From the NCBI GenBank assembly GCA_021846045.1, contig JAJZCM010000001.1, forward strand, positions 54,457-118,456: a stretch of DNA of 64,000 bases, read 5' to 3'. Origin of the DNA: a bacterium. GTDB taxonomy: Bacteria; Elusimicrobiota; Elusimicrobia; UBA1565; UBA9628. Both the position numbers and the translations under genes were made by a program. The notes beneath the pieces were generated by a model. It did no database searches. It saw only the letters and a program-made list of their open reading frames with translations, and was not told the origin of the DNA. Within the stretch, counting starts at the first letter, position 1. Each line of letters opens with the position of its first letter. Positions 9,939-34,031 of the stretch are shown here, one piece after another.

Positions 9939-9992
9939 TGGCCCTATTGTATCACTTGGCCGAAGCATAACGTCTTTCCTAGAGACGTTTCG

Positions 9993-10090
9993 GCACGCTC
10001 TCGCTTCGCGAGCAAGGAACGCAGGCGCGTGCCTAGAATCTTTCTCATAGATGCCCGCGCACGCTCTCGCTTCGCGAGCAAGGAACGCAG
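9993..10090. repeat. two identical 32-nt direct repeats (GCACGCTCTCGCTTCGCGAGCAAGGAACGCAG) separated by a 34-nt spacer; each contains a CTCGC-TTC-GCGAG hairpin
   Basis: Direct read of the intergenic region between the LivK-like gene start and the glycine-zipper gene stop. Confidence 0.7.
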
Positions 10091-10117: not shown

Positions 10118-12130
10118 TCATGAGGCTGGAGACCCTGGTGGCATCGGAGATTTTGACGGCGGAAGCGCCGGTTTAGAAGGAGCCGGATTATTTTTGTCGT
10201 TTGCGGAATTTTTTGTCGAGAGCTGAGTTTTCTTAGAAGAAGATTCTTTGTTTGTTAAATAATCTCGCCCAGCGGCGATTGCAGCTCCAATAACTGCTCC
10301 CGCAGCGCTTCCTATGGCCGCCCCCGGAAGACCGCCCGTCATGGCGCCAAGGATTCCACCCGCAACTCCGACAATCGCCGATCCTTTGAGCATGTCTTTG
10401 ACGTAACTGGTCTTTTTAGGGAGGGAACTTTTGGGCTTTTCTTGTTTGGCCGCGTGGTTTTTTTGGATTGAAGGTTTCCGCATTTTGGAGTTACCCGCAG
10501 TTTTTTTAGAAGGAGTTTGGTTGGGCGTGACCGCTGCCGAAGGCCCGCTCTGCGATAGTGCAGAATCCGACTTATTCTGGGCGAGCTGATTGCCAATTGC
10601 GTTACCGTACGCCATTGTTTTTTGTTTGTTCAAACCGAACGTATCTTTCGGCGTTGGTTGTGGAGATGTGGTGGCGAGGATGCCTCCAGCGGCGATTGCA
10701 GCTCCAATAACTGCTCCCGCGGCGCTTCCTATGGCCGCCCCCGGAAGACCGCCCGTCATGGCGCCAAGGATTCCACCCGCAACTCCGACAATCGCCGCCC
10801 CTTTGAGCATGTCTTTGACGTAGCTGGTCTTTTTAGGGAGGGAACTTTTGGGCTTTTCTTGTTTGGCCGCGTGGTTTTTTGGGGCGGCTTTGTGATGAAT
10901 TGAAGGTTTCCGCATTTTGGAGTTGCCCGCAGTTTTTTTAGAAGGAGTTTGGTTGGGCGTGACCACTGCCGAAGGCCCGCTCTGCGATAGTGCAGAATCC
11001 GACTTATTCTGGGCGAGCTGATTGCCAATTGCGTTACCGTACGCCATTGTTTTTTGTTTGTTCAAACCGAACGTATCTTTCGGCGTTGGTTGTGGAGATG
11101 TGGTGGCGAGGATGCCTTCTGAATTGGGAGAAGACGCAATCGGCGCGGGGGGCTGGAGAGGCTTGGACGGCCCGCCATTGCTTAGGGGGCCAGCTGCAAG
11201 CCCGATTCCGGCTCCAAGGACGGCGGCGGTGATGATCAATCCTGGGGCGGCTCCAAATCCCGTGACCATCAGTCCCGCGGCCAAACCCAAAAGAAGGCCG
11301 GTGGCTATGCGGGAAGTGGCGATATAGTGGCCGACTTTATTAATTCCACCCCAAAGTTTAGCGAAAAAACCGGGTTTTGATTTCTTGGGTTTGTCGGACG
11401 GCGCTTTAGGCGCCGGCGGTGCGGCCACTGGTTTATTAACGTCTTGAGTGAAAGGATTTTGGTTGGAGGTTTGAGATTTCCCACTGGAAGGCGGCGCTGA
11501 TGGGGTTGTGGGGGTTCCTCCAGATGCGTTGGCTTGGCCTTGGGTTTGAGTGGCGAGATTTCCCATTCCTTTTGTTGGTGGGGGCGTCGGGGTTCCTTGA
11601 GCGGCGGTGGATTTGGCAGCTTGGCGGGCTGAACCCATTGCCGCCGACCCTGCGACTTTCTGGTTCAGGGCTTGTCTTCCTTCATTACCCATTCCTGAAT
11701 TGGCTGGATTGGGAGTTGGTCTGGCAATGGAGTCATCCAATTTTTTTTTCTCAGCCGCCGTGGGTTTATATTGTGCAAGAGCCCAAAGAGGAGAACCGGG
11801 CGCGTATTCGGTTATAATGGGCCAGTGATTGGTTATATTGACATTCCTCAGAACCATTCCATGCTTACCAGTTCCTTGAAGAATCGCTTGAGCAAATTTG
11901 CGGCGCGCTTGATTGTCAGCGGCCTCTAGGGCCAATGACTTATCATCCACGCGGGAGACGGAACCGCAGGCATAATAAATGTCCCCTTTCGGATGGATCA
12001 AATGTTTCGGGGATTTTATGCATTCCTGCATTAAGTCATTCGGTGTTGGATTTGCCCAAGAGCTGACTGGAAACAGGCCTAGAGCTAAAATCGGAAAAAC
12101 CGTGGAGATAATCGCGAGTTTCAGTTTCAT
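10118..12130 (-). CDS. secreted low-complexity glycine-zipper repeat protein (N-terminal globular domain, P/T/S/Q-rich linkers, repeated GxxxG membrane-like segments)
   Basis: Signal peptide MKLKLAIISTVFPILALGLFPVSSWA, then a ~100-aa globular domain, then a long compositionally biased region with two ~139-aa near-identical repeats. Each repeat ends in GAAIVGVAGGILGAMTGGLPGAAIGSAAGAVIGAAIAAGG. Start set at the Met preceding the signal peptide. Confidence 0.6.
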   Translation of the reverse strand: MKLKLAIISTVFPILALGLFPVSSWANPTPNDLMQECIKSPKHLIHPKGDIYYACGSVSRVDDKSLALEAADNQARRKFAQAILQGTGKHGMVLRNVNITNHWPIITEYAPGSPLWALAQYKPTAAEKKKLDDSIARPTPNPANSGMGNEGRQALNQKVAGSAAMGSARQAAKSTAAQGTPTPPPTKGMGNLATQTQGQANASGGTPTTPSAPPSSGKSQTSNQNPFTQDVNKPVAAPPAPKAPSDKPKKSKPGFFAKLWGGINKVGHYIATSRIATGLLLGLAAGLMVTGFGAAPGLIITAAVLGAGIGLAAGPLSNGGPSKPLQPPAPIASSPNSEGILATTSPQPTPKDTFGLNKQKTMAYGNAIGNQLAQNKSDSALSQSGPSAVVTPNQTPSKKTAGNSKMRKPSIHHKAAPKNHAAKQEKPKSSLPKKTSYVKDMLKGAAIVGVAGGILGAMTGGLPGAAIGSAAGAVIGAAIAAGGILATTSPQPTPKDTFGLNKQKTMAYGNAIGNQLAQNKSDSALSQSGPSAAVTPNQTPSKKTAGNSKMRKPSIQKNHAAKQEKPKSSLPKKTSYVKDMLKGSAIVGVAGGILGAMTGGLPGAAIGSAAGAVIGAAIAAGRDYLTNKESSSKKTQLSTKNSANDKNNPAPSKPALPPSKSPMPPGSPAS
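10268..11103. repeat. near-perfect tandem duplication, ~417-bp unit x2 (one 18-nt indel), inside the glycine-zipper gene
   Basis: Units 10268-10685 and 10686-11103 are almost identical at the nucleotide level. The antisense shadow ORFs 10339..10596 and 10756..11028 are 95% identical. Confidence 0.85.
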
Positions 12131-12256: not shown

Positions 12257-13909
12257 ATGGAACGATGGACAATTAAGGAAGACCCTAACGCCGCGGACCC
12301 GCAACGCCACTCCCTTCTCATCGCGGGAGATAAATCGGATTTGCAGAAAATTATTAAAAAATTCGGCAAACTGTGCGGACGTCCGACCACAATGGGCGCT
12401 TCCGGCGACTATAATCTGTGTCTGCCGCTTCATCATTTGACCGAGAAAATTCAGAAAGAACTTGGGGAGTTTTTAGATTTGATGACGCCGCAAAAGCCCG
12501 TTTCCAAGGCCGTGAAGGAATCAGAGCCTCAAGAACCTGCGGTTTCGGCCCTTGAATATCCAACACCTCAGGAATCGCCAAAAGAAGAGTCTTTGCCCAC
12601 TCCAGGATTAGAGCTTGAAGTTTCTCCCGCGCCGCAACCGGAAGAGCCAAAGAAAGAAATTCCAGTTATTGAGACCGCGCCTTCGGCTTTGCCGCCCTTG
12701 GAGTCCTTGGCGACCCCGGCGGTGATTCCGGATCCTTTGAAGAATTTGGAAACTCTCAAAATCGGCTCCCATAATCGTTTCGCCCATGCGGCGGCAATTT
12801 CCGTCGCCGACGCCCCCGGGTCCATGTATAATCCACTTTTTATTTACGGGCCTCCGGGTTCGGGAAAAACACATTTGTCCCATGCCTTGGCCCAGGAAAT
12901 ATCAAAAAATCTGGGTGAAAATACCGTTTTATTGACTTCAGGCTGGAAACTGTCGGCGTCCACGGTTTCTGCCTCCAATGCGGCCCATTCCCTTTGGTGG
13001 GATAAAATGTCCGCGCATTTCAAAGTCATGATTATTGATGACCTTCACTTAATGGCTTTGACTGAGCAAAATCAGGGATTGATTGAGAAGATGATTTCCC
13101 AGTTTTTATCGGAAGGACGCCAACTGGTGGTCACCGCCGTTTATCCTCCCAAGGCATTGGAGTCTCTGGCCCAAAGGCTTAAGATTTCTTTTACGGCGGC
13201 GCAGGCTTCTTCCTTTGAAATGAAGCCCGCGCCGCCGTCTATCTCGATGGAGGAGTTCAATGACTTTATTCGAGGGAAAGATTTAAATGTGTCCGAAGAA
13301 GAATCAAAAATGCTGCTAGAGCGACTGTCCGCATTTCCTTTGGAGGCTCATTTGTGGGCTCGGCGGTTAGTTCGTTTTCTGGATTTGGGCGTTTCGTTGG
13401 GACAGAGTCCTAAAATCAAGGCATTATTGCCGGCGCTTTTTGATCTTGCATTGCCGGAAGAGGCGAAGGCGCTTCCGGATCCGTCCGACATGGCGAAGGT
13501 CAGCCATTTCCTTTTTCCAAAGGCCAAGGCGGAATCCTTGCCCATTACCTGGTTTTTCCCTAAAGGTTCGGATTCGATGGTCGCATGGGCGCAAATGATG
13601 TTTTTTCAATCCATGGCCGATATGGGAATTTCGCGTTCCTATCGAAACCTTCCGCCGCAGCCGTATGACCCCTCCCAGCCGCTGGGCCTTCCGTTTAAAA
13701 TCGGGGAAATCTGCCGGAGATTGTCTCCGAGAGCCGTGGTCCTTTTGGGGCCGCCTCCACAAACTCCATTGGGAGAAAGAGAGACCGAATGGATTCATGC
13801 GACGCGGCATGTTTTAGGAGCTATGGGAGTTGCGTCTGCGCATATTCCCTTTCAAGGAACTAAAGTCTACGCTTATTTCTTGAGGGCTCATCTGGACATG
13901 ATGCCATGA
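12257..13909 (+). CDS. DnaA-like AAA+ ATPase paralog (domain III only; no DnaA domain IV)
   Basis: SHNRFAHAAAISVADAPGSMYNPLFIYGPPGSGKTHLSHA matches the DnaA/Hda domain-III N-terminal region and Walker A. The Walker B/sensor region MIIDDLHLMA...LVVTAVYPPK is present. A P/E-rich N-terminal linker and a ~200-aa C-terminal extension lack the DnaA-box-binding signature. Confidence 0.6.
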   Translation: MERWTIKEDPNAADPQRHSLLIAGDKSDLQKIIKKFGKLCGRPTTMGASGDYNLCLPLHHLTEKIQKELGEFLDLMTPQKPVSKAVKESEPQEPAVSALEYPTPQESPKEESLPTPGLELEVSPAPQPEEPKKEIPVIETAPSALPPLESLATPAVIPDPLKNLETLKIGSHNRFAHAAAISVADAPGSMYNPLFIYGPPGSGKTHLSHALAQEISKNLGENTVLLTSGWKLSASTVSASNAAHSLWWDKMSAHFKVMIIDDLHLMALTEQNQGLIEKMISQFLSEGRQLVVTAVYPPKALESLAQRLKISFTAAQASSFEMKPAPPSISMEEFNDFIRGKDLNVSEEESKMLLERLSAFPLEAHLWARRLVRFLDLGVSLGQSPKIKALLPALFDLALPEEAKALPDPSDMAKVSHFLFPKAKAESLPITWFFPKGSDSMVAWAQMMFFQSMADMGISRSYRNLPPQPYDPSQPLGLPFKIGEICRRLSPRAVVLLGPPPQTPLGERETEWIHATRHVLGAMGVASAHIPFQGTKVYAYFLRAHLDMMP

Positions 13910-15330
13910 GCTTGGGAATTCTAAAAGATATCGCCTGGCTCGGCGCCGGATTTGTTTTAGGAGCGGGCGGGTCCTTGTTTTTGAGGGAAACTTTTTATAA
14001 AGACGAATTGGATTCCCAGGGTTTAAAAGAAGAATTAACGGAAACTCAAGTCCGCCTTGACGCGAAATCCCGAGAAATTAAAACCCTTCAAGATACCGTA
14101 CGATCCGCCGCTTCTCCTACGGATTTGACGGCGGCGCTGGCGGGAATCGTTTCGATCGTGACTCGGCACATGGAAGTGGATTTGGTCGCCTTTTTACTCT
14201 TGGATGAAGCCTCCCAGGAATTGGTCACTCGGCCCGGGGCTTACGGCCTTGAGAAGGAGGAGCAGATTTACAAAATATCGCTGATGGATGAAAACGCTTC
14301 CTCGGTTCGGGTTTTTAAGACAGGGAAGCCTTTCGTCGCGGGAGACGCTCAAGCCGACCCCGGCGTCATCACGCATTACGCCAAATTATGGGATATTCGC
14401 TCTTTAATCGTCGTTCCGGTCAGCAAACAAGGGCATTCCTGGGGTGTGATGCGGGTTGGTAGCCGCAAGCCTTATGCGTTTACCCAAGAGCATGTGGATC
14501 TGATGGGAGCAATTGCCGAGGATGCGGCGATTATCATTGAGATGTCGGTTCTAAATCAGCAATTACTTTCGGATAGGGAACAATTAAGGGCCTTAAGCCG
14601 TATGAAAGATGAGTTCGTTTCAACCGTCAGCCATGAGTTTAAGACGCCGCTGACAACGCTGGCGGGTTTTTTGGGGCTCATGCTGGAAGGGGAAATCGGC
14701 CCCGTCAGCGAGGATCAAAGACGATTTATGGTGATGGCTAAAAACGCGGTAGAGAGGCTTTCGAACATGGTTTCTGATTTATTAGACATTTCCCGACTTG
14801 AATCGGACATGAAAATGGAGCTGAAGCGTTTTTCTCTAACCCCATCGCTCTCTTCTATTATTGAAGCTCACAACCTTGAAGCGACGGCGGCCAAAAAGGA
14901 AATTCATCTCGATTCTCCCAAGAATTTGCCGGAAGCCCTCGCCGACCCAAAATGGATTTCGGTCGTCGCTGAGAATTTGATATCGAATGCGCTGAAATTT
15001 ACCAAACCGGGCGGACGCATCAGCGTTTCCGTTTTTAATAAAGGAGATTGCATCGAGACGATTATTGAAGATGACGGCATCGGCCTTCCACAAGAGGCGC
15101 TCTCCCATATCTTTGAAAAATTTTACCGGGCTTCAAACGCGCGGGAATTGAATATCTCGGGGACCGGCCTTGGCCTTGCGATATCAAAAAAAATTATCGA
15201 TTTACACGGCGGACGTTTATGGCTTGAGTCTTCCTTGGGAAAAGGAACGAAAGCTCATTTCGTCATTTATTCTGTCAACCGTTATGGCGGCCCCGGCCAA
15301 AACAGAACGGAAACAATGCAGGAGGCTTAA
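13906..15330 (+). CDS. GAF-domain sensor histidine kinase
   Basis: One N-terminal TM helix, a GAF-like region, the HisKA motif VSHEFKTPLTTLAGF, and HATPase_c (G-box GTGLGLAISKKII). It starts with an ATGA overlap onto the upstream gene. Confidence 0.85.
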   Translation: MSLGILKDIAWLGAGFVLGAGGSLFLRETFYKDELDSQGLKEELTETQVRLDAKSREIKTLQDTVRSAASPTDLTAALAGIVSIVTRHMEVDLVAFLLLDEASQELVTRPGAYGLEKEEQIYKISLMDENASSVRVFKTGKPFVAGDAQADPGVITHYAKLWDIRSLIVVPVSKQGHSWGVMRVGSRKPYAFTQEHVDLMGAIAEDAAIIIEMSVLNQQLLSDREQLRALSRMKDEFVSTVSHEFKTPLTTLAGFLGLMLEGEIGPVSEDQRRFMVMAKNAVERLSNMVSDLLDISRLESDMKMELKRFSLTPSLSSIIEAHNLEATAAKKEIHLDSPKNLPEALADPKWISVVAENLISNALKFTKPGGRISVSVFNKGDCIETIIEDDGIGLPQEALSHIFEKFYRASNARELNISGTGLGLAISKKIIDLHGGRLWLESSLGKGTKAHFVIYSVNRYGGPGQNRTETMQEA

Positions 15331-15331
15331 T

Positions 15332-16882
15332 ATGTTAGCTCATGTCAGTTCTATGGGACTGCGCGGCATTGAAAGTTATCCCGTTTTGGTCGAACTTGAT
15401 TTATCCAACGGACTTCCGGGGTATACAACGGTCGGCCTGCCCGATGACGCGGTTCGGGAGTCGCGGGATAGAGTCATTTCGGCGGTTAGAAACTGCGGCT
15501 TTAATCTTCCGCAAAAGAGAATTACCGTTAATTTGGCTCCGGGACAATCGCGAAAGGAAGGTAGCCATTTTGATTTGCCTATAGCCTTGGCCCTCTTGAC
15601 GGCTTCAGGACAAATTGAGTCGGAGAGTTGGGAGGGAAAATACTGCTGCATCGGGGAATTGGCTTTAGATGGGACGATGCGTCCGGTTCGAGGCGCTCTA
15701 TCGATGGCCATGAGGGCGCGGCAGGAAGGGTTTAAAGCCATGATTGTTCCCAAGGCAAACGCCGCGGAGGCGAGAGCGGTCGGTATTGACGTAATTCCGG
15801 GCGCCACCTTAAGGGAAATCGTGGATTTTCTCAGCGCCCCTGAATTATCCCAAAGAGATTTTGCTTTTTCAGACCCCTTTGAGGATGTCTTTCCCGCGCA
15901 AAAAGAGGAGAGAAGTCTGGAAGACATGGCGGATGTCAAGGGACAGGTTTTGGCAAAAAGAGCAGCGGAGATTGCGGCCGCCGGCTTTCACAACTTGATT
16001 GTGATGGGGCCTCCGGGAATTGGAAAGTCAATGCTGGCCCGCCGCCTGCCCGGAATTTTGCCACCCATGAGCCGGGGAGAAATTTTAGAGGTGACGCGCA
16101 TTCATTCGGCAAGATCGAAAGAAGGTTCCGGCCTTGTCGCTCGGAGACCCTTTAGGGACCCGCATCACAGCGCCTCTTTGGTTTCCCTAGTGGGCGGCGG
16201 GCCGGGGGTTAAGCCTGGAGAAGTTTCCCTGGCGCATGGAGGAGTTCTCTTCCTAGATGAAGTCCTTGAATTCAACAGGACCGCCTTGGAATCTTTGCGT
16301 CAGCCTCTGTCGGATTTTAAAATTACGATCTCAAGGGCTAAGGACTGCGTGGAATATCCCGCGCGCTTCATTTTGGTCGCGGCGCTCAACCCTTGTCCCT
16401 GCGGGTTTAGGGGACATCCGACCAAACCTTGCATCTGCAGTCCCAAGGCCGTTTCAAGTTACCTTTCCCGAGTTTCAGGGCCTTTGCTTGACCGAATCGA
16501 TCTTCAGGTTGAAATGTCTCCCCTTGACTTTTCCGATTGGGCCGCTCAAACTAACAGGATGCCTGAATCTTCCGCTGAAATTAGAAAGCGGGTCGTTTGC
16601 GCCCGCCAAAAGCAGCAAGAACGGTTGGGCAGAGAAGACTTCGCGGCAAACGCCTACTTAACGCAAGGCGAAATCAAACGGCATTGCGTTCTTTCCTCCA
16701 GCGCCCTGGACGCTTTGAGGCAAGCCGCTCAGAAATTTGACCTATCGGCTCGGGGTCTGGACCGTGTTCTCAAGGTTTCTCGCACGATTGCGGATTTGGA
16801 GGACTCTGATTCCATTGAGATAAGACACATAGCCGAGGCCATGAATTACCGGGCTTTGGATAAAGAGAGGAATTCCTTATGA
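15332..16882 (+). CDS. comM: Mg-chelatase-like AAA+ ATPase ComM/YifB
   Basis: N-terminal Lon-like/ChlI domain (SMGLRGIESYPVLVELD), Walker A GPPGIGKSML and a C-terminal MgChelatase_C region. GGAGG RBS at 15321-15325. Confidence 0.85.
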   Translation: MLAHVSSMGLRGIESYPVLVELDLSNGLPGYTTVGLPDDAVRESRDRVISAVRNCGFNLPQKRITVNLAPGQSRKEGSHFDLPIALALLTASGQIESESWEGKYCCIGELALDGTMRPVRGALSMAMRARQEGFKAMIVPKANAAEARAVGIDVIPGATLREIVDFLSAPELSQRDFAFSDPFEDVFPAQKEERSLEDMADVKGQVLAKRAAEIAAAGFHNLIVMGPPGIGKSMLARRLPGILPPMSRGEILEVTRIHSARSKEGSGLVARRPFRDPHHSASLVSLVGGGPGVKPGEVSLAHGGVLFLDEVLEFNRTALESLRQPLSDFKITISRAKDCVEYPARFILVAALNPCPCGFRGHPTKPCICSPKAVSSYLSRVSGPLLDRIDLQVEMSPLDFSDWAAQTNRMPESSAEIRKRVVCARQKQQERLGREDFAANAYLTQGEIKRHCVLSSSALDALRQAAQKFDLSARGLDRVLKVSRTIADLEDSDSIEIRHIAEAMNYRALDKERNSL

Positions 16883-27330: not shown

Positions 27331-29901
27331 TTGATGCCGACCATGGTTAAAGATAAGATTGCCTCGCTTAAGAAATCTCTTGAGCTTCAGTCCTTTCTTC
27401 ATAAATCCATGATTTGGTGGCTTCCGCTTCTCTATTTTTTAATTTCTTCTCTTTTCTATTTACGGACATACGATTCCGCTCAGGTCAAGATTACCATCAT
27501 GCAAATGGGGGGATTGGCGCTTTTGACCCTGTGGGTCAGCCGCTTGATTGAATCGGGCGGCGCCGCGCTCAGCCGGGAAGACCTGGTTTGTCTGTCTCCG
27601 TTTTTGGCGTATCTTTTGGTCGGAATTCTTTCCTTCATCCATGCGCCTTACCGAATGGCGAGCGTGGACTTTTTCATCCGGCATTTTTTCTTTATGTCGG
27701 TGGCTCTTATCGTTATCTATGAATTCGACGCCGAAGCGTCAGAGCGTTTGACAAAAATACTCATTTGGACGGCCTGGGTGGCGGTCGGATACGGGTTTCT
27801 CCAGGTCATTGATACCCATTTCTTTCCTCCCGGAGTGGGGCACGGCATCGATCCTTTCATCTGGCGCATGGCCTTTGGCGATCGAGTGTTCTCAACTTAC
27901 GGTAATCCCAACTTTTTCGCGGACTTTTTAGTCATCATCTTCCCCATCTTGTTGTTGCGCTATCTCAAAGGGCGCCGGATGTCCTTGATTCCCTTGATGT
28001 TGATGCTCTTGGTTGATCTCTATTTTACGGGGACCAAGGGGGCTTGGGTGGGTTTTGGAATCGTGATTGTCGTTTTTTGCGTGATCGCCTTCATCTATTT
28101 TAAGGAAATTATTCAGCCGTATCGAAAGTATTTGATTGGGGCGGCAATTGCGGTCTTGCTACCGTTCTCATATATATTCATGAAGGATTTCACGACGCGC
28201 CTGGCTTCGGTTAATTTCCGCTTGTTTACCTGGGAAGCCACTTGGGAAATGATCATGACCCAGCCCTTTATCGGGACCGGCGTGGGGAGTTTTCCTCCGG
28301 TTTATCCTGCTTTTAGGCGCCCGCCGATTTTTCATATCGAGGCCAAGCATAATACGGAAACCGATCACGCGGAAGACGAGTATTTGGAAGAGTTGTTCGA
28401 CAATGGAATTCTGGGCTTTGGCGTATTTTTGTGGTTGATCATCAGCACCTTGGTCGTCGGTTTTAAGTCTCTAGGGCAGATGCTGGATGTTTCCCACTCA
28501 TCAAAAGATAAAAAAATTCCGCCGAGGGTCTTTGACCTTTTGGGCTACATGATCGCGTTTATCGGCATGTTGTGTCATAATTTTTTCGACGTGAGTCTCC
28601 GTTTTGTCTCTTCGGGGGTTTATTTGGGCCTTTTGCCTGGGATGATCGTAAATCTCTCCCGAGGAAAGGGCCTTTATGAATCGCATACTCTTCAGGAAAA
28701 AAATGTCAAACCGGGCGAAGCGGCTCCGGAGTCGTTTTGGAAAACCCTGTCTGAGTTCTTAATCTGGCCGGTTCGTTTGGCTGCCTGGGGCGGGCTTTTC
28801 TATATCGCCTTCTTGATTCTGACTCAATTTAACGCCTTGCAGGGCCCTATTGATCGCCTAACGATGGGAGGGGAAATTCTTCAGTGGTGGCTTTCTTGGG
28901 GAACCTTATTGGCTTGCGTTCTTGGATTGGGATTTGTTTTTTTTCGACTGATCCTTCTGTCGGAGAATCCCTTTGTCGGGGCGCTCATCTTGTCGGCCCT
29001 GCCGATTCTTTATACTTTTTGGGGTTATTTTAAAGCCGATATCCATCACAATATCGCCATCTATTTTTCAAAGGAACATGATTGGGATAAGGCCTTGTCC
29101 GAATATCAAACGGTGCATCGCCTCGATCCTAATTTTGCGATGGCGCTCTACTTCATGGGGAATGTCTTCAACGACCGGTTTAATATGCAAAAAACTTATA
29201 ATCCTTCCTGGGGAGACAAGAACAACGTTTCGCGGGATGATTATGAGCGCGCCTTGGACGCCTATAATGAAGTTCGCAAGCTTTCCCCCAATTACGTTCA
29301 GATGCATTATCAGGTGGGCGTCCTTCATCTTAAGCGCGCCCAGTGGGCGATAGACCACGGTCATCCCGAAGACGCGTTGACGTATTTTAACCGCGCGCTG
29401 ACCCGCTTTAAGCTTTATAAGACCATTGATCCCGTCTTTGGGCCCAATTTCCTGAGAATAGGCCAGGTCTATATGATGGAGCATCGCTATGCGGACGCGG
29501 TCAAGGCCTACCAAGAATATATTTTGGCGGATAAATGCGCGGTTGATCCTTCCTTGATCGTCAAGCCTTTCCTTAGAAAAACCATTCTCAGTTATCAAAC
29601 CTATGTTCATGTCCCCGGAATTCCCTATCCGGTTCATCGTCACCCCGCTCCCGACAAGCATGCGGAAGGGGCCGAGGTTTACACCAGTTTGGGGAACGCT
29701 TATTTTATGATGAATAATTTTGAGGCGGCCAAGGCCGCTTACCAGGAAGCTCTTCAATATGATCCAAATTTTGCCCAAGCTCAACATAACATAGCCGCCG
29801 TCTCGCTGCGGCTTAAAAATCCAAAAGGGAAGCCCTTGCTCCAAAATCCTTCAGAAGCTTCTCCACATTCTTCCGGCTATGAGATCATTCAGAAAAAGTA
29901 G
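27331..29901 (+). CDS. Wzy_C (O-antigen ligase / PglL-type oligosaccharyltransferase-like) polytopic membrane protein with C-terminal TPR domain
   Basis: More than 10 TM helices and the Wzy_C-like loop PFIGTGVGSFPPVYPAFR...HIEAKHNTETDHAEDEYLEELFDNGILG. The C-terminal ~350 aa are TPR-like. Confidence 0.65.
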   Translation: MMPTMVKDKIASLKKSLELQSFLHKSMIWWLPLLYFLISSLFYLRTYDSAQVKITIMQMGGLALLTLWVSRLIESGGAALSREDLVCLSPFLAYLLVGILSFIHAPYRMASVDFFIRHFFFMSVALIVIYEFDAEASERLTKILIWTAWVAVGYGFLQVIDTHFFPPGVGHGIDPFIWRMAFGDRVFSTYGNPNFFADFLVIIFPILLLRYLKGRRMSLIPLMLMLLVDLYFTGTKGAWVGFGIVIVVFCVIAFIYFKEIIQPYRKYLIGAAIAVLLPFSYIFMKDFTTRLASVNFRLFTWEATWEMIMTQPFIGTGVGSFPPVYPAFRRPPIFHIEAKHNTETDHAEDEYLEELFDNGILGFGVFLWLIISTLVVGFKSLGQMLDVSHSSKDKKIPPRVFDLLGYMIAFIGMLCHNFFDVSLRFVSSGVYLGLLPGMIVNLSRGKGLYESHTLQEKNVKPGEAAPESFWKTLSEFLIWPVRLAAWGGLFYIAFLILTQFNALQGPIDRLTMGGEILQWWLSWGTLLACVLGLGFVFFRLILLSENPFVGALILSALPILYTFWGYFKADIHHNIAIYFSKEHDWDKALSEYQTVHRLDPNFAMALYFMGNVFNDRFNMQKTYNPSWGDKNNVSRDDYERALDAYNEVRKLSPNYVQMHYQVGVLHLKRAQWAIDHGHPEDALTYFNRALTRFKLYKTIDPVFGPNFLRIGQVYMMEHRYADAVKAYQEYILADKCAVDPSLIVKPFLRKTILSYQTYVHVPGIPYPVHRHPAPDKHAEGAEVYTSLGNAYFMMNNFEAAKAAYQEALQYDPNFAQAQHNIAAVSLRLKNPKGKPLLQNPSEASPHSSGYEIIQKK

Positions 29902-31708
29902 CCGCAAATTTCTTCCCGCTCTTTTAATCGCCTTTGCGGCTTCTTTGACCGCCGCTGTCAGGGCGGCAACTTTTCCCGCGACCGACGAGGCCGTTTTTTC
30001 TCCGATGCAAGAGGAAATGGCGCGTTCGCTCAAAAATTTGAAAGAGGGAGATTTTGGGCCGCCTTATTTTATCGCTTACCGCATGGTCGTTGGCCGGGGA
30101 ATGGATATCTCGGCGTCTTTTGGCGGAGTTGTATCCGAAAACAAATATCATTCCCAGACTCTTTTCTCCGAAGTCAGATATGGGAATAAAAAAATGGATA
30201 ACACCTCGATTCAATATCAGGGGCTGAGCGCAGAGGCGCCGCTCAGCGGAAAAGAATTACGCGAGAATTTATGGATATTGACGGATAAGGCCTATAAGGA
30301 CGCGGTTGCCGGATATCTGGAAAAAAAAGCGAAACGGGTTACGGAATTTAGAGCGGAAAATCTGCCGGATTTTACCGATGAACCCTCGACGCGTTCCTAT
30401 GAGCCTCAAGAGGCTCCGAGTTTTGACGATGCCGCAGCCCGTTCCCTCGTTAAAAATTTAAGCCGGCTTTTGCGTTCCTATCCTTATATTTATCATGGGA
30501 CTGTGATTTTGCATTTAGGATGGTCGCGCCGGTACCTTTTGACCTCCGAGGGGACCAAGGTCTCGGGGCCGTATGAGAATTTGCCCAATTACCTCAGTAT
30601 TGACGTCAATTCTCGAGCGAAAGACGGGCTTAAGGTCAGCAATTACCGCGAGTGGGTTTTTAAAGATATGAAAAGTCTTCCGCCTCGGGAGAAACTAGCA
30701 AGAGCCGTGAAGCGCTTGGCGCTTGAGCTTAAAGAGTTGAGAGACGCCCCCTTAGAGACACCCGTCGCCGCTCCGACAATTTTGGATCCGGAAATGACGG
30801 GGGTCTTGTTTCATGAAGCGTTGGGACACAAGTTAGAGGGGGAGCGGCAAAGGGATCCCTTGCAAGGGCAAATATTTAAAGGCATGGTCGGCAAAAAAAT
30901 TATTCCAAGTTTCTTGTCAGTTATTGACGACCCAACGATGAGTTTTTTTAAAGGCGTTTCGCTTCACGGTCATTACCGGATTGATTCCGAAGGCGTCCCA
31001 TCTGAAAGAGTCGTTCTGGTTCGCAATGGTATTTTGGAAAATTTCCTGATGTCGAGATGGCCGCTTAAGGATTTTTCCCATTCAAACGGGCATGGGCGGG
31101 CTTCTTCAAGACTTCGTCCCTTGGGGCGCATGGCGAACTTGATGATTGAGGCTAAAAATCCTCTAAGTCCCGCCGCGCTTAAAAATAAATTACTGAAGCT
31201 GCTTCGCTCGGAACACAAGCCTTACGGCTTTAGGATTGTGGGCGCTTACGGCGGAGACAATCCAAGCGAGAGAACCCAGGCTCAGACGCTGCAGCTTCGG
31301 CCGCGTTTAGTTTACCGAATTTCGGCCAAGGACGGAAAAGAGACCTTGGTAAGAGGCGTTAAAATCGTCGTGACCCCCTTGGTCGTTTTAAACCGCATTT
31401 TGGCGGCTTCAAACGACGAGGCCCTCTCAAATCCTTACTTTTGCGGGGCGGAATCAGGATGGGCGCCGGTCGATCAAATCGCTCCGAGCGTTTTAGTTTC
31501 GGAGCTTGAGTTTGAGCGTCTGCCTGAAAATCGCTTAAAACCGCCGATTTTGCCCTCTCCGTTGACACATTTGCTAAAGCACGGAGAGGACGCTTGGCCT
31601 CCAGCCTTGATCGCGCCCTCTCCGTTGACACATTTGCTAAAGCACGGAGAGGACGCTTGGCCTCCAGCCTTGATCGCGCCTTCTCCGTTGACGCATGGAA
31701 AAAATTGA
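29879..31708 (+). CDS. secreted TldD-like metallopeptidase (HExxGH present)
   Basis: Signal peptide, then a TldD/PmbA fold pattern with HEALGHKLEGE. The C-terminus is extended by a 63-nt tandem duplication. Confidence 0.7.
   Translation: MRSFRKSSRKFLPALLIAFAASLTAAVRAATFPATDEAVFSPMQEEMARSLKNLKEGDFGPPYFIAYRMVVGRGMDISASFGGVVSENKYHSQTLFSEVRYGNKKMDNTSIQYQGLSAEAPLSGKELRENLWILTDKAYKDAVAGYLEKKAKRVTEFRAENLPDFTDEPSTRSYEPQEAPSFDDAAARSLVKNLSRLLRSYPYIYHGTVILHLGWSRRYLLTSEGTKVSGPYENLPNYLSIDVNSRAKDGLKVSNYREWVFKDMKSLPPREKLARAVKRLALELKELRDAPLETPVAAPTILDPEMTGVLFHEALGHKLEGERQRDPLQGQIFKGMVGKKIIPSFLSVIDDPTMSFFKGVSLHGHYRIDSEGVPSERVVLVRNGILENFLMSRWPLKDFSHSNGHGRASSRLRPLGRMANLMIEAKNPLSPAALKNKLLKLLRSEHKPYGFRIVGAYGGDNPSERTQAQTLQLRPRLVYRISAKDGKETLVRGVKIVVTPLVVLNRILAASNDEALSNPYFCGAESGWAPVDQIAPSVLVSELEFERLPENRLKPPILPSPLTHLLKHGEDAWPPALIAPSPLTHLLKHGEDAWPPALIAPSPLTHGKN
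31555..31698. repeat. 63-bp tandem duplication (2.3 copies), each unit holding an 8-bp-stem hairpin CTCTCCGT..ACGGAGAG
   Basis: Units 31555-31617 and 31618-31680 are identical, followed by a partial third unit. Encodes PSPLTHLLKHGEDAWPPALIA x2 at the C-terminus of the TldD-like protein. Confidence 0.85.
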
Positions 31709-32712: not shown

Positions 32713-34031
32713 ATCAGGCGTCTTTAAAAATTGCCTGCGTTCCTTGCTCGCAAAGCGAGAGTGTGCGCGGGCGTCTAGGGGGAAGATTTTGGGCACGCGC
32801 ATGCATTCTCTTTTTCGCATTCATCCTGAGAAGCGCCTACGCTTTTTACGCTTACAATCATACGTTTAAGGAATATAAGACCGAAGGCCAGCAGGTATCG
32901 GCGCTTGATCCGGATGGATACAATCGCCTGGGCGTCGCCTTAATTGAGCGCGGGGAACTTTCCCTGACGCCGGGCCGTCTTGAAACTTCCCGCGAGCCTT
33001 TTTATCCCCTTTTGTTGGCGGCGGTCCATTTCTTTTTCGGGCTTTCACCCATCGTGGGGATTACGCTGAATGTCTTGATCGGAGTTTTGTGTTGTTGGAT
33101 GACGTATGCGGTCACTCTCTCTGTTTTTCAAAATGAACGGGTGGGGCTTTTTTCTCTCTTGCTGGCGGCTTTTTTTCCGGAATGGATTTATTTTTCCGCG
33201 ACGATGTTTCGAGAGCCGTTGATCATCCTTTTAAGCTTGATTTGGATTCTCCTGTGGCAGAAATACTCTTCCTCGAGGAATGGGTGGGCTTATGCCGGGA
33301 TGGGAACGGCCTTTGGGCTTCTCTGTTTAACCCGTTCTCCTTTCATCCCCATAGGGGGCGCTTTTGCGCTCTTGGCCGCCTCAAAAATAAAACTTAAAGA
33401 TTGGGCTCGGACCATTGGAATTTTCCTTTTGTGCGCTTTTGTTCTGGAAGGAATATGGACGTACCGCAACGAGAGAATCTTAAAGAGATGGGTCGCGGGG
33501 GCGAGCATGGGGGGCTCGGTCATGTATTTATCCCTTCTCTATAATTACTCGCGTCCGGACATTCCCCTTGAATACCCGCTGGGTGCGGGAAAAGACCCCG
33601 TTATTTCTGTGGTCCTTGCCCGGCATTTGACCTTGGATCAAGCCGAGCCTATTTTTTATCAGTCCTGTCTTAAAATTCTCATCCATCACCCGCTGGTTTT
33701 TTGGGACGCTTTCATCCATAAGGTTATGAAACTCTGGCGGCCTTACCCCAATCCTGGATGGAAATATCCGCATTCACTTTTCGCTCTTTCATCTCTCTCT
33801 TTGATCGGGCTTTTCTCGGGTGGTGGAATCATGCTTCTAGGTCTTTGGGGAAGCGTTTTGGCGTGGAGAAATGGATATCCTATTGGATTTTTAATCCTGT
33901 TTCCGATGCTCATGTCGGTGGTTTACGGGCTTTTTTGGGCCGTGATGCGCTATCACACAACTTTAATGGTGGGGGTCATTCCTCAGGCGGCCTACGCCTT
34001 AGACGCGCTGCTCTCAAGAAAAGAATCATGA
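32694..34031 (+). CDS. GT-C membrane glycosyltransferase (ArnT/PMT / GT39-83-like)
   Basis: Polytopic protein with an N-terminal periplasmic loop GYNRLGVAL..REPFYPLLLA, typical of polyprenyl-phosphate-sugar-dependent GT-C enzymes. Start uncertain. Confidence 0.65.
   Translation: MREKKVNQASLKIACVPCSQSESVRGRLGGRFWARACILFFAFILRSAYAFYAYNHTFKEYKTEGQQVSALDPDGYNRLGVALIERGELSLTPGRLETSREPFYPLLLAAVHFFFGLSPIVGITLNVLIGVLCCWMTYAVTLSVFQNERVGLFSLLLAAFFPEWIYFSATMFREPLIILLSLIWILLWQKYSSSRNGWAYAGMGTAFGLLCLTRSPFIPIGGAFALLAASKIKLKDWARTIGIFLLCAFVLEGIWTYRNERILKRWVAGASMGGSVMYLSLLYNYSRPDIPLEYPLGAGKDPVISVVLARHLTLDQAEPIFYQSCLKILIHHPLVFWDAFIHKVMKLWRPYPNPGWKYPHSLFALSSLSLIGLFSGGGIMLLGLWGSVLAWRNGYPIGFLILFPMLMSVVYGLFWAVMRYHTTLMVGVIPQAAYALDALLSRKES

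Follow-up and report, generated by a model that had tools for sequence, protein, structure and literature searches.

Tandem duplication within the gene of an exported protein that evolves fast is well-known biology, and surface proteins that vary in size through tandem repeats include streptococcal alpha C/Rib and mycoplasma Vsa/Vlp. Two-transmembrane-helix (2TM) glycine-zipper proteins have been described as oligomeric stabilizers of the outer membrane; SlyB, YfgH, OsmB, and YiaD are outer-membrane lipoproteins in which the 2TM zipper drives the formation of oligomeric rings (bioRxiv 10.64898/2025.12.22.696046). Here we describe a gene on the minus strand (10118-12130) of a 64,000-nt stretch of contig JAJZCM010000001.1 (assembly GCA_021846045.1, Elusimicrobiota; the whole stretch is referred to as the "window"), which encodes a 670-aa protein with a tandemly duplicated glycine-zipper module. 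In the reading that we hold to be slightly likelier right than wrong, this is a Sec-exported, strongly basic cell-envelope protein from a small Elusimicrobia family without Pfam assignment, whose last module was duplicated in frame and which may act as a membrane-tethered periplasmic scaffold.

With SlyB, YfgH, OsmB, YiaD, Pcp, and the Rickettsia 17-kDa antigen, the 670-aa protein has in common a ~40-aa two-helix Gly/Ala-rich hairpin with GxxxGxxxG periodicity and the status of a Sec-exported protein of a diderm envelope. The principle of membrane-embedded self-association is plausibly common to it and the SlyB-type proteins. The differences are considerable. The 670-aa protein has neither a lipobox nor a lipid anchor, and it is far longer than the SlyB-type proteins (roughly 70-220 aa). 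It carries two zipper hairpins and, after an amphipathic helix, a third hairpin that is far more conserved and more hydrophobic. In addition, it has an SHS2-like N-terminal domain (N-domain) and more than 350 aa of basic disordered linker.

The two repeat units, A and B, are joined head to tail in frame, with the junction GCCGCTGG to AGGCATCC (GCAATCGCCGCTGG to AGGCATCCTCGCC in the junction-spanning form). Direct alignment gave 7 mismatches over 417 aligned positions and one 15-nt indel, which results in I-HHKAAP-K in unit A and I-Q-K in unit B. The first-pass annotation had recognized this duplication correctly, but it took the indel as 18 nt instead of 15 nt and both units as 139 aa instead of 144 + 139 aa. 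The conserved short helix of the module has the pattern TMxxxxAIxxQLxQNK. Tandem Repeats Finder did not report the repeat at 10269-11117; the direct alignment is unambiguous, and an identity of 98% over 417 nt far exceeds what chance would give. Of the seven substitutions, five are synonymous and two non-synonymous, and the proportions of synonymous and non-synonymous differences are 0.049 (pS) and 0.0064 (pN), respectively, with a pN/pS of 0.13. Since most of the substitutions are synonymous and the indel is in frame, both copies are real, constrained coding sequence.

The synonymous divergence between units A and B is 4.9%, as compared with 0.04-0.09% between strains, and the duplication thus predates the divergence of the strains. 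As the other family members have no internal repeat, it arose in the species lineage of the window. The duplication had been described as recent, which is appropriate relative to the family, where the relatives carry a single module, and inappropriate on the timescale of the strains. The exact 30-mer spanning the A-B junction was not found in JGI metagenome contigs.

The open reading frame (ORF) runs from an ATG to a TGA stop. A longer version of 689 aa with a TTG start would begin within the -35 box, and the homologues all start at MKLK. The 670-aa product is identical to database protein P0018, an independent record on a 122-kb NCBI contig. Its mature form is basic, with an isoelectric point (pI) of 10.2. 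The signal peptide consists of the MKLK n-region, a hydrophobic core, and the SWA motif preceding N, and the Ser at -3 and the Ala at -1 are kept across the family; on the basis of this sequence pattern the signal peptide is probably cleaved. The lipobox Cys at +1 of the mature protein is absent: the signal peptide ends in FPVSSWA, which is followed by NPTP, and the first Cys is residue 37. The linkers have P/T/S/Q/K contents of 51-61% and a pI of about 10, and their predicted local distance difference test (pLDDT) values in AlphaFold2 (AF2) models are below 50. The tail motif R/W-D/N-Y-x-K-N-K is kept in the family. The coordinates of the features are shown in Table 1. In agreement with the first-pass annotation, the signal peptide, the folded N-domain of ~100 aa, the low-complexity basic linkers, and the GxxxG hairpins are all present. 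The resemblance to the zipper motifs of the 17-kDa antigen and of YMGG-type outer-membrane lipoproteins that it noted does not make the protein a lipoprotein of that type, as the lipobox is missing. The surface location that it proposed found no support, as the Pfam and NCBIfam scans detected no LPXTG, PEP-CTERM, or beta-barrel domain.

Table 1 Features of the gene for the 670-aa protein and of its tandem repeat (positions in the window).
Feature	Positions	Strand	Remarks
Promoter-like TTGACA-17-TACATT, sigma-70-like	12187-12159	minus	consensus match only
Shine-Dalgarno sequence GGGAGG	12144-12139	minus	8 nt before the ATG, read from the sequence
Signal peptide, aa 1-26, predicted signal peptidase I (SPase I) site between SWA and N	12053-12130	minus	Kyte-Doolittle maximum 2.13
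N-terminal globular domain, aa 27-125, alpha-beta-alpha-beta-beta-alpha, invariant C37 and C55	11756-12052	minus	
Linker 1, aa 126-250, pI 10.3, P/T/S/Q/K/A-rich, predicted disordered	11381-11755	minus	pLDDT <50
Conserved core, aa 251-316: cationic amphipathic helix (PGFFAKLWGGINKVGHYI), then hydrophobic Gly-rich helical hairpin (aa 275-316)	11183-11380	minus	
Repeat unit A, 432 nt, 144 codons: conserved short helix, basic linker, Gly-zipper hairpin A	11117-10686	minus	
15-nt in-frame segment, unit A only (HHKAAP in A, Q in B)	10881-10895	minus	placement ambiguous by a few nt
Gly-zipper helical hairpin A, aa 443-482	10685-10804	minus	7 GxxxG, 19/5000 shuffles
Repeat unit B, 417 nt, 139 codons, same module	10685-10269	minus	98.3% identical to unit A
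Gly-zipper helical hairpin B, aa 582-621	10268-10387	minus	GxxxG shuffle test
C-terminal tail, aa 622-670 (RDYLTNK...), basic, K/S/P-rich	10121-10267	minus	

The best conserved part of the mature protein is the core region of aa 247-335 (KPKKSKPGFFAKLWGGINKVGHYIATSRIATGLLLGLAAGLMVTGFGAAPGLIITAAVLGAGIGLAAGPL...PPAPIASSP), with 79-83% identity in every member as compared with 9-63% elsewhere, and it is probably the key part of the protein; the first-pass annotation had quoted another hairpin and had not singled out this region. Its amphipathic helix has a hydrophobic moment (muH) of 0.46, and the hairpin that follows is the most hydrophobic in the protein. The 40-aa hairpins A and B contain 7 GxxxG motifs each, a number reached by 19-25 of 5000 composition-preserving shuffles; the core hairpin contains 5, which 91 of 5000 shuffles reach. 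The turns of the hairpins are MTGGLPG and GFGAAPG. In hairpin B region, AF2 placed helices at 578-596 and 604-626 with low confidence. The repeated GxxxG motifs on two adjacent hydrophobic helices with a short turn correspond to a glycine-zipper 2TM at the level of the motif, and to this extent the likeness proposed by the first-pass annotation holds. It does not extend to the family models. Gly-zipper_YMGG (PF13441) matched aa 441-481 with 21.1 bits (E 2.6e-4), under the gathering cut-off of 28.9 bits; it matched three of 11 family members at E<0.01, and none of them reached the cut-off. In hmmscan against Pfam-A, whose filters drop most matches above E ~0.1, Gly-zipper_Omp (PF13488) and Rick_17kDa_Anti (PF05433) gave no match at E<=10. 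The NCBIfam matches, which were to the PdsO N-terminus (E 2.3e-10), PRK11280 (E 1.1e-5), TagQ, ssl2009, and E492 microcin (E 1.7), cover the zipper only and lie far under the cut-offs.

The N-domain was modeled by AF2 with a pLDDT of 86.7 and a predicted TM-score (pTM) of 0.81, and judged from this model its fold is likely SHS2/Lpp20-like. FlgP, Lpp20, dodecin, and FlgT have been described as having an SHS2-like fold in common (PMC12222027). The N-domain was compared with Lpp20 (HP1456), FlgP, FlgT, Tip-alpha, FTT_1539c, and dodecin with regard to this fold, and no sequence similarity to any of them was detectable. In particular, similarity to Lpp20-type proteins was undetectable with sequence profiles and PDB chain sequences, and Foldseek gave no significant match in the PDB. 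Homologue searches that used only the N-domain, given either as an alignment or as one sequence, had no matches; they missed the known family members as well, and this negative is uninformative. The two invariant cysteines of the domain are, as read from the sequences, consistent with a periplasmic disulfide.

These features can be combined into a scheme for the favored scaffold reading. A single illegitimate recombination event would have duplicated the last module in frame in the species of the window, and both copies would since have evolved under purifying selection. The duplication was probably tolerated because the unit adds two helices, an even number, and leaves the sidedness of the downstream parts unchanged. 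All soluble parts would be periplasmic if the signal peptide is cleaved and the hairpins contribute an even number of helices. The hairpins may be inserted into an envelope membrane or rest on its surface, and may associate with one another by glycine-zipper packing. They would thereby keep both the SHS2-like domain and the polycationic linkers tethered in the periplasm, and the protein would serve as a scaffold or stabilizer of the envelope. By analogy, the protein would be a functional counterpart of the glycine-zipper 2TM proteins SlyB and YfgH, minus the lipid anchor. The extra module would provide one more oligomerization or anchoring hairpin and about 100 aa of reach. The 98%-identical units are also substrates for homologous recombination, and the single-copy alleles described below are the deletion products to be expected, whether in cells or in an assembler. 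Possible locations are the inner membrane, anchored weakly from the periplasm, and the inner leaflet of the outer membrane in the manner of SlyB; self-association without full insertion is possible as well. We infer that a membrane-tethered periplasmic scaffold is the best description.

Several points weigh against this description. Every hairpin has Lys/Arg-rich flanks, with 7 positive residues in the 30 aa before the core hairpin, and a hairpin in the inner membrane would violate the positive-inside rule because these flanks would be periplasmic after cleavage of the signal peptide. Insertion energies estimated crudely, as simple additive sums on the Hessa scale, come out marginal for every helix (+1 to +3.9 kcal/mol) and do not settle the choice among inner membrane, outer membrane, and soluble states. 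To our knowledge, there is no pathway for inserting a non-lipidated alpha-helical hairpin into the outer membrane. The likeness to SlyB and YfgH is a resemblance, given that the tests of family membership failed. Finally, the full-length AF2 model has a mean pLDDT of 41 and is uninformative beyond the N-domain, so that the packing of the hairpins is unreadable.

The family is tiny and limited to a clade of uncultured Elusimicrobia-type bacteria. The full-length search gave only ten relatives, one of which is 100% identical over its length of 531 aa; the rest are 44-55% identical and 529-605 aa long. A search of 1.84 billion protein representatives with a profile of the core gave five matches at E<1e-10. 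All of the relatives at 44-55% identity have a single module, as does the distant member P0011. The genomic loci of the relatives are in metagenome-assembled genomes (MAGs) labelled Elusimicrobia bacterium or "bacterium". No Pfam or NCBIfam family passed its cut-off for the 670-aa protein or the other members, and sequence searches found no relative among PDB chains. The family peptide patterns gave no matches in JGI metagenome contigs. A Lachnospiraceae match (L007) was rejected as a relative because its 30% identity extends over 106 aa of low-complexity and transmembrane sequence. With its SHS2-like domain, conserved core of amphipathic helix and hairpin, and Gly-zipper module, this unannotated family could be defined as a new one.

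The gene order around the locus is kept in the window and four MAG loci: histidine kinase, DnaA-like AAA+ ATPase, the gene for the 670-aa protein, Peripla_BP_6, and 4-alpha-glucanotransferase (MalQ). The neighbors in the window are 70-85% identical to those of the relatives at the protein level and the 670-aa protein is 45-55% identical; the gene thus evolves fast, at a chromosomal locus that is stable. Module exchange is apparent elsewhere in the family. At one relative's locus (L003), 142 nt of the 3' end of the homologue (11480-11621), which encode the second zipper helix and the RDYLKNK tail, recur 2.7 kb downstream (14163-14304) with 97.2% identity inside an 80-aa ORF. This copy is an independent, dispersed partial duplication of the C-terminal module. 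A JGI contig (L010, 13-6562) has four adjacent paralogues, the first of which is P0011 and is cut by the contig end. The 150-nt 3' ends of genes 1 and 2 are 97.3% identical and their other segments 72-87%, which suggests gene conversion. An alternative Cys-containing N-domain, "SQKPYCLQ...FKIN", occurs in P0008-P0010 and in genes 2-4 of L010, the latter without a Pfam match. As the module was copied or converted in L003 and L010 and the N-domain was swapped, the family evolves by module exchange.

The divergent neighbor (12257-13909, plus strand) encodes 550 aa with a Bac_DnaA match in the ATPase domain only (residues 164-313, E 1.7e-28). Its N-terminal region is acidic and rich in Pro/Glu, its long C-terminal part has no Pfam match, and it is not a canonical DnaA. 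In the related genomes examined it adjoins the histidine kinase. A functional link between this ATPase and the 670-aa protein was considered and rejected, as ~4.5 kb lie between the two genes in L002.

The number of modules was compared among near-identical assemblies. GCA_027330785.1, GCA_027401925.1, and GCA_027401875.1 are near-identical sister assemblies, and the cluster at 90% protein identity consists of four sequences, namely the 670-aa form of the window, a 531-aa form (L001), and two different 526-aa forms (L008 and L009). L001, L008, and L009 have one module each, and their flanks are 99.9% identical to the window. Because each assembly nevertheless carries private single-nucleotide polymorphisms (SNPs) in the flanks, they are separate assemblies of one population. 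The repeat varies at six positions (columns 153, 193, 220 as a substitution with the adjacent 15-nt indel, 295, 319-320, and 397), where unit A has T, C, T with the insert, C, GG, and C, and unit B has C, T, C without the insert, T, AT, and T. In this notation L001 reads AAA followed by BBB, L009 reads A followed by BBBBB, and L008 is B throughout. Every single-copy allele can thus be read as a 5' part of unit A and a 3' part of unit B. This A5'-B3' pattern is predicted alike by unequal crossover in cells and by an assembler that collapses the repeat in one pass.

The assembler route was examined with de Bruijn graphs of the two-copy allele. A path that yields L008 exists for every k<=153, and one for L001 exists for every k<=58, a range that includes the usual upper limit of 55. 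For L009 there is such a path only at k<=40, and at k=55 this allele has 15 k-mers that are absent from the two-copy allele. It differs from a pure unit-B allele at one site and may be explained as collapse plus a SNP. The view that the three single-copy alleles represent three different crossover points was for this reason withdrawn for L009. Sister MAGs of the same series have coverages of 3.7-6x in their contig names. Three independent recent deletions, all of them at consensus frequency, would also be surprising, because the two-copy allele has persisted much longer, as judged from 4.9% synonymous divergence against less than 0.1% for the strains. Taken together, we place assembler collapse somewhat ahead of a real copy-number polymorphism. 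The copy-number variation anticipated by the first-pass annotation is accordingly seen as a difference between the window and three 99.9%-identical assemblies, and collapse accounts for each allele, with an extra assumption for L009. Its suggestion of phase variation is not supported: both unit lengths, 432 and 417 nt, are divisible by 3 and the junction keeps the frame, so that copy number alters the size of the protein and not its expression. If collapse is the cause, three of four public MAGs of the population misreport the gene by 139-144 codons and yet give an intact ORF. If the difference is true, it would be a clear-cut case in nature of an envelope protein whose number of membrane hairpins is varied by recombination, and it would give initial access to the envelope architecture of Elusimicrobia, a phylum whose cell biology has hardly been studied by experiment.

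The SNPs among the four assemblies are clustered and mosaic (16705-16804, 12668-12871, 13675-14001, and 2683-2782). Three are common to L001 and L009, and two to L008 and L009. This distribution suggests recombination among strains of the population. Directly after the N-domain, the invariant KKK of the EKKKLD motif is encoded by an A9 homopolymer (11741-11749, minus strand), at which slippage could occur; no differences in it were found among the four assemblies.

Along the lines of the first-pass annotation, the gene might alternatively encode a size-variable surface or envelope antigen, whose module number (one or two) is a selectively maintained polymorphism that arises by RecA-type unequal crossover and, by altering length or epitopes, evades phage, predators, or host immunity. 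The four alleles (670, 531, 526, and 526 aa) in nearly identical flanks, with chimeric single-copy forms, are what this account expects; the flanking SNPs of each assembly mark independent genomes, and the 15 k-mers of L009 are missing from the two-copy allele. The fast evolution of the gene relative to its neighbors, the independent copying or conversion of the C-terminal module in L003 and L010, and the other type of N-domain in P0008-P0010 also speak for it. We nevertheless consider it rather improbable. Identical chimeras are expected from collapse for L008 and L001, the L009 allele is one site from a pure unit-B allele, and the coverage in the contig names of related MAGs is low at 3.7-6x. 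Its timescale conflicts with the age of the copies, there are only two of them, and an in-frame repeat is unable to switch the gene off. The domain scans described above also gave no sign of surface exposure. In common with alpha C/Rib and Vsa/Vlp, the protein is exported and has long near-identical in-frame tandem units, and there are length alleles among near-identical genomes, with A5'-B3' deletion alleles of the kind formed by recombination between units. It is unlike them in having two units only, a membrane hairpin instead of a soluble domain, and no detected sorting signal, and the variation is here seen at the level of assemblies. A related possibility, which we regard as similarly doubtful, is a modular Elusimicrobia envelope family in which the N-domain is of one of two types, the anchor hairpin is invariant, the Gly-zipper module can be copied, and the number of hairpin modules is a polymorphism maintained by selection and produced by recombination within and between paralogues. 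The module exchange in the family is the main argument for such a variable envelope scaffold, in which the repeat unit would be a membrane-embedded hairpin instead of a soluble domain.

It is very unlikely that the protein is a secreted membrane-damaging toxin or bacteriocin whose amphipathic helix and zipper hairpins enter a target membrane, as glycine-zipper effectors and E492-type microcins do. The high pI of 10.2 and the weak NCBIfam match to E492 microcin would fit this idea, and membrane-damaging glycine-zipper toxins are documented (PMC12955049). The amphipathic motif (GFFAKLWGGINKVG) also recurs in the repeat proteins P0012 and P0013, which resemble eukaryotic antimicrobial-peptide precursors. 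The gene is, however, single-copy and sits at a conserved chromosomal locus with housekeeping-type neighbors in five divergent genomes, and the locus has no adjacent small immunity-like gene or secretion-system gene. Known microcins do not resemble a protein of this length (670 aa) with long disordered linkers, and the database matches are weak, of low complexity, and in no case over a curated cut-off. Most improbable of all is that the two copies in the window themselves result from misassembly, for example from the concatenation of two strain haplotypes. The contig is of MAG type and three sister assemblies have one copy, which would agree with an artefact. A k-mer assembler should be unable to create the A-B junction from a single-copy genome, and the synonymous bias of the substitutions (5:2, pN/pS 0.13) together with the in-frame indel bespeaks evolution, not error. 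The L001 allele, whose 5' part has the variants of unit A and whose 3' part has those of unit B, is moreover as expected from a two-copy template. The envelope scaffold with an in-frame duplicated module is our preferred reading.

P0012 and P0013 are secreted, eukaryotic-looking proteins with repeats such as KR-SKAGNFFKKLWGGIKKVGKAVIGAVL-RR, and each resembles a precursor of several antimicrobial peptides. Only the cationic amphipathic motif is common to them and the core helix, and the similarity is probably convergent.

Some further repeats were observed in the window, where Rfam and tRNA scans gave no matches. A repeated element of ~50 nt (...GCACGCTCTCGCTTCGCGAGCAAGGAACGCAG) with a short palindrome occurs at 9973-10024 and 10039-10090 on the plus strand. 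Both copies are 66 nt apart and lie in the 149-nt spacer between the stop of the 670-aa ORF and the next gene. A third one, which has 2 mismatches, is located 22 kb away (32735-32780, minus strand). Such repeats appeared in 0 of 100 shuffles, and the folding of the spacer is unremarkable (z = -1.5). The element may be a repetitive extragenic palindromic (REP)-like or terminator-associated sequence. In addition, a 63-nt tandem repeat (31552-31696; 2.3 copies, 97% match) is present at the 3' end of the ORF at 29879-31708, and its length is in frame (63 = 3 x 21).

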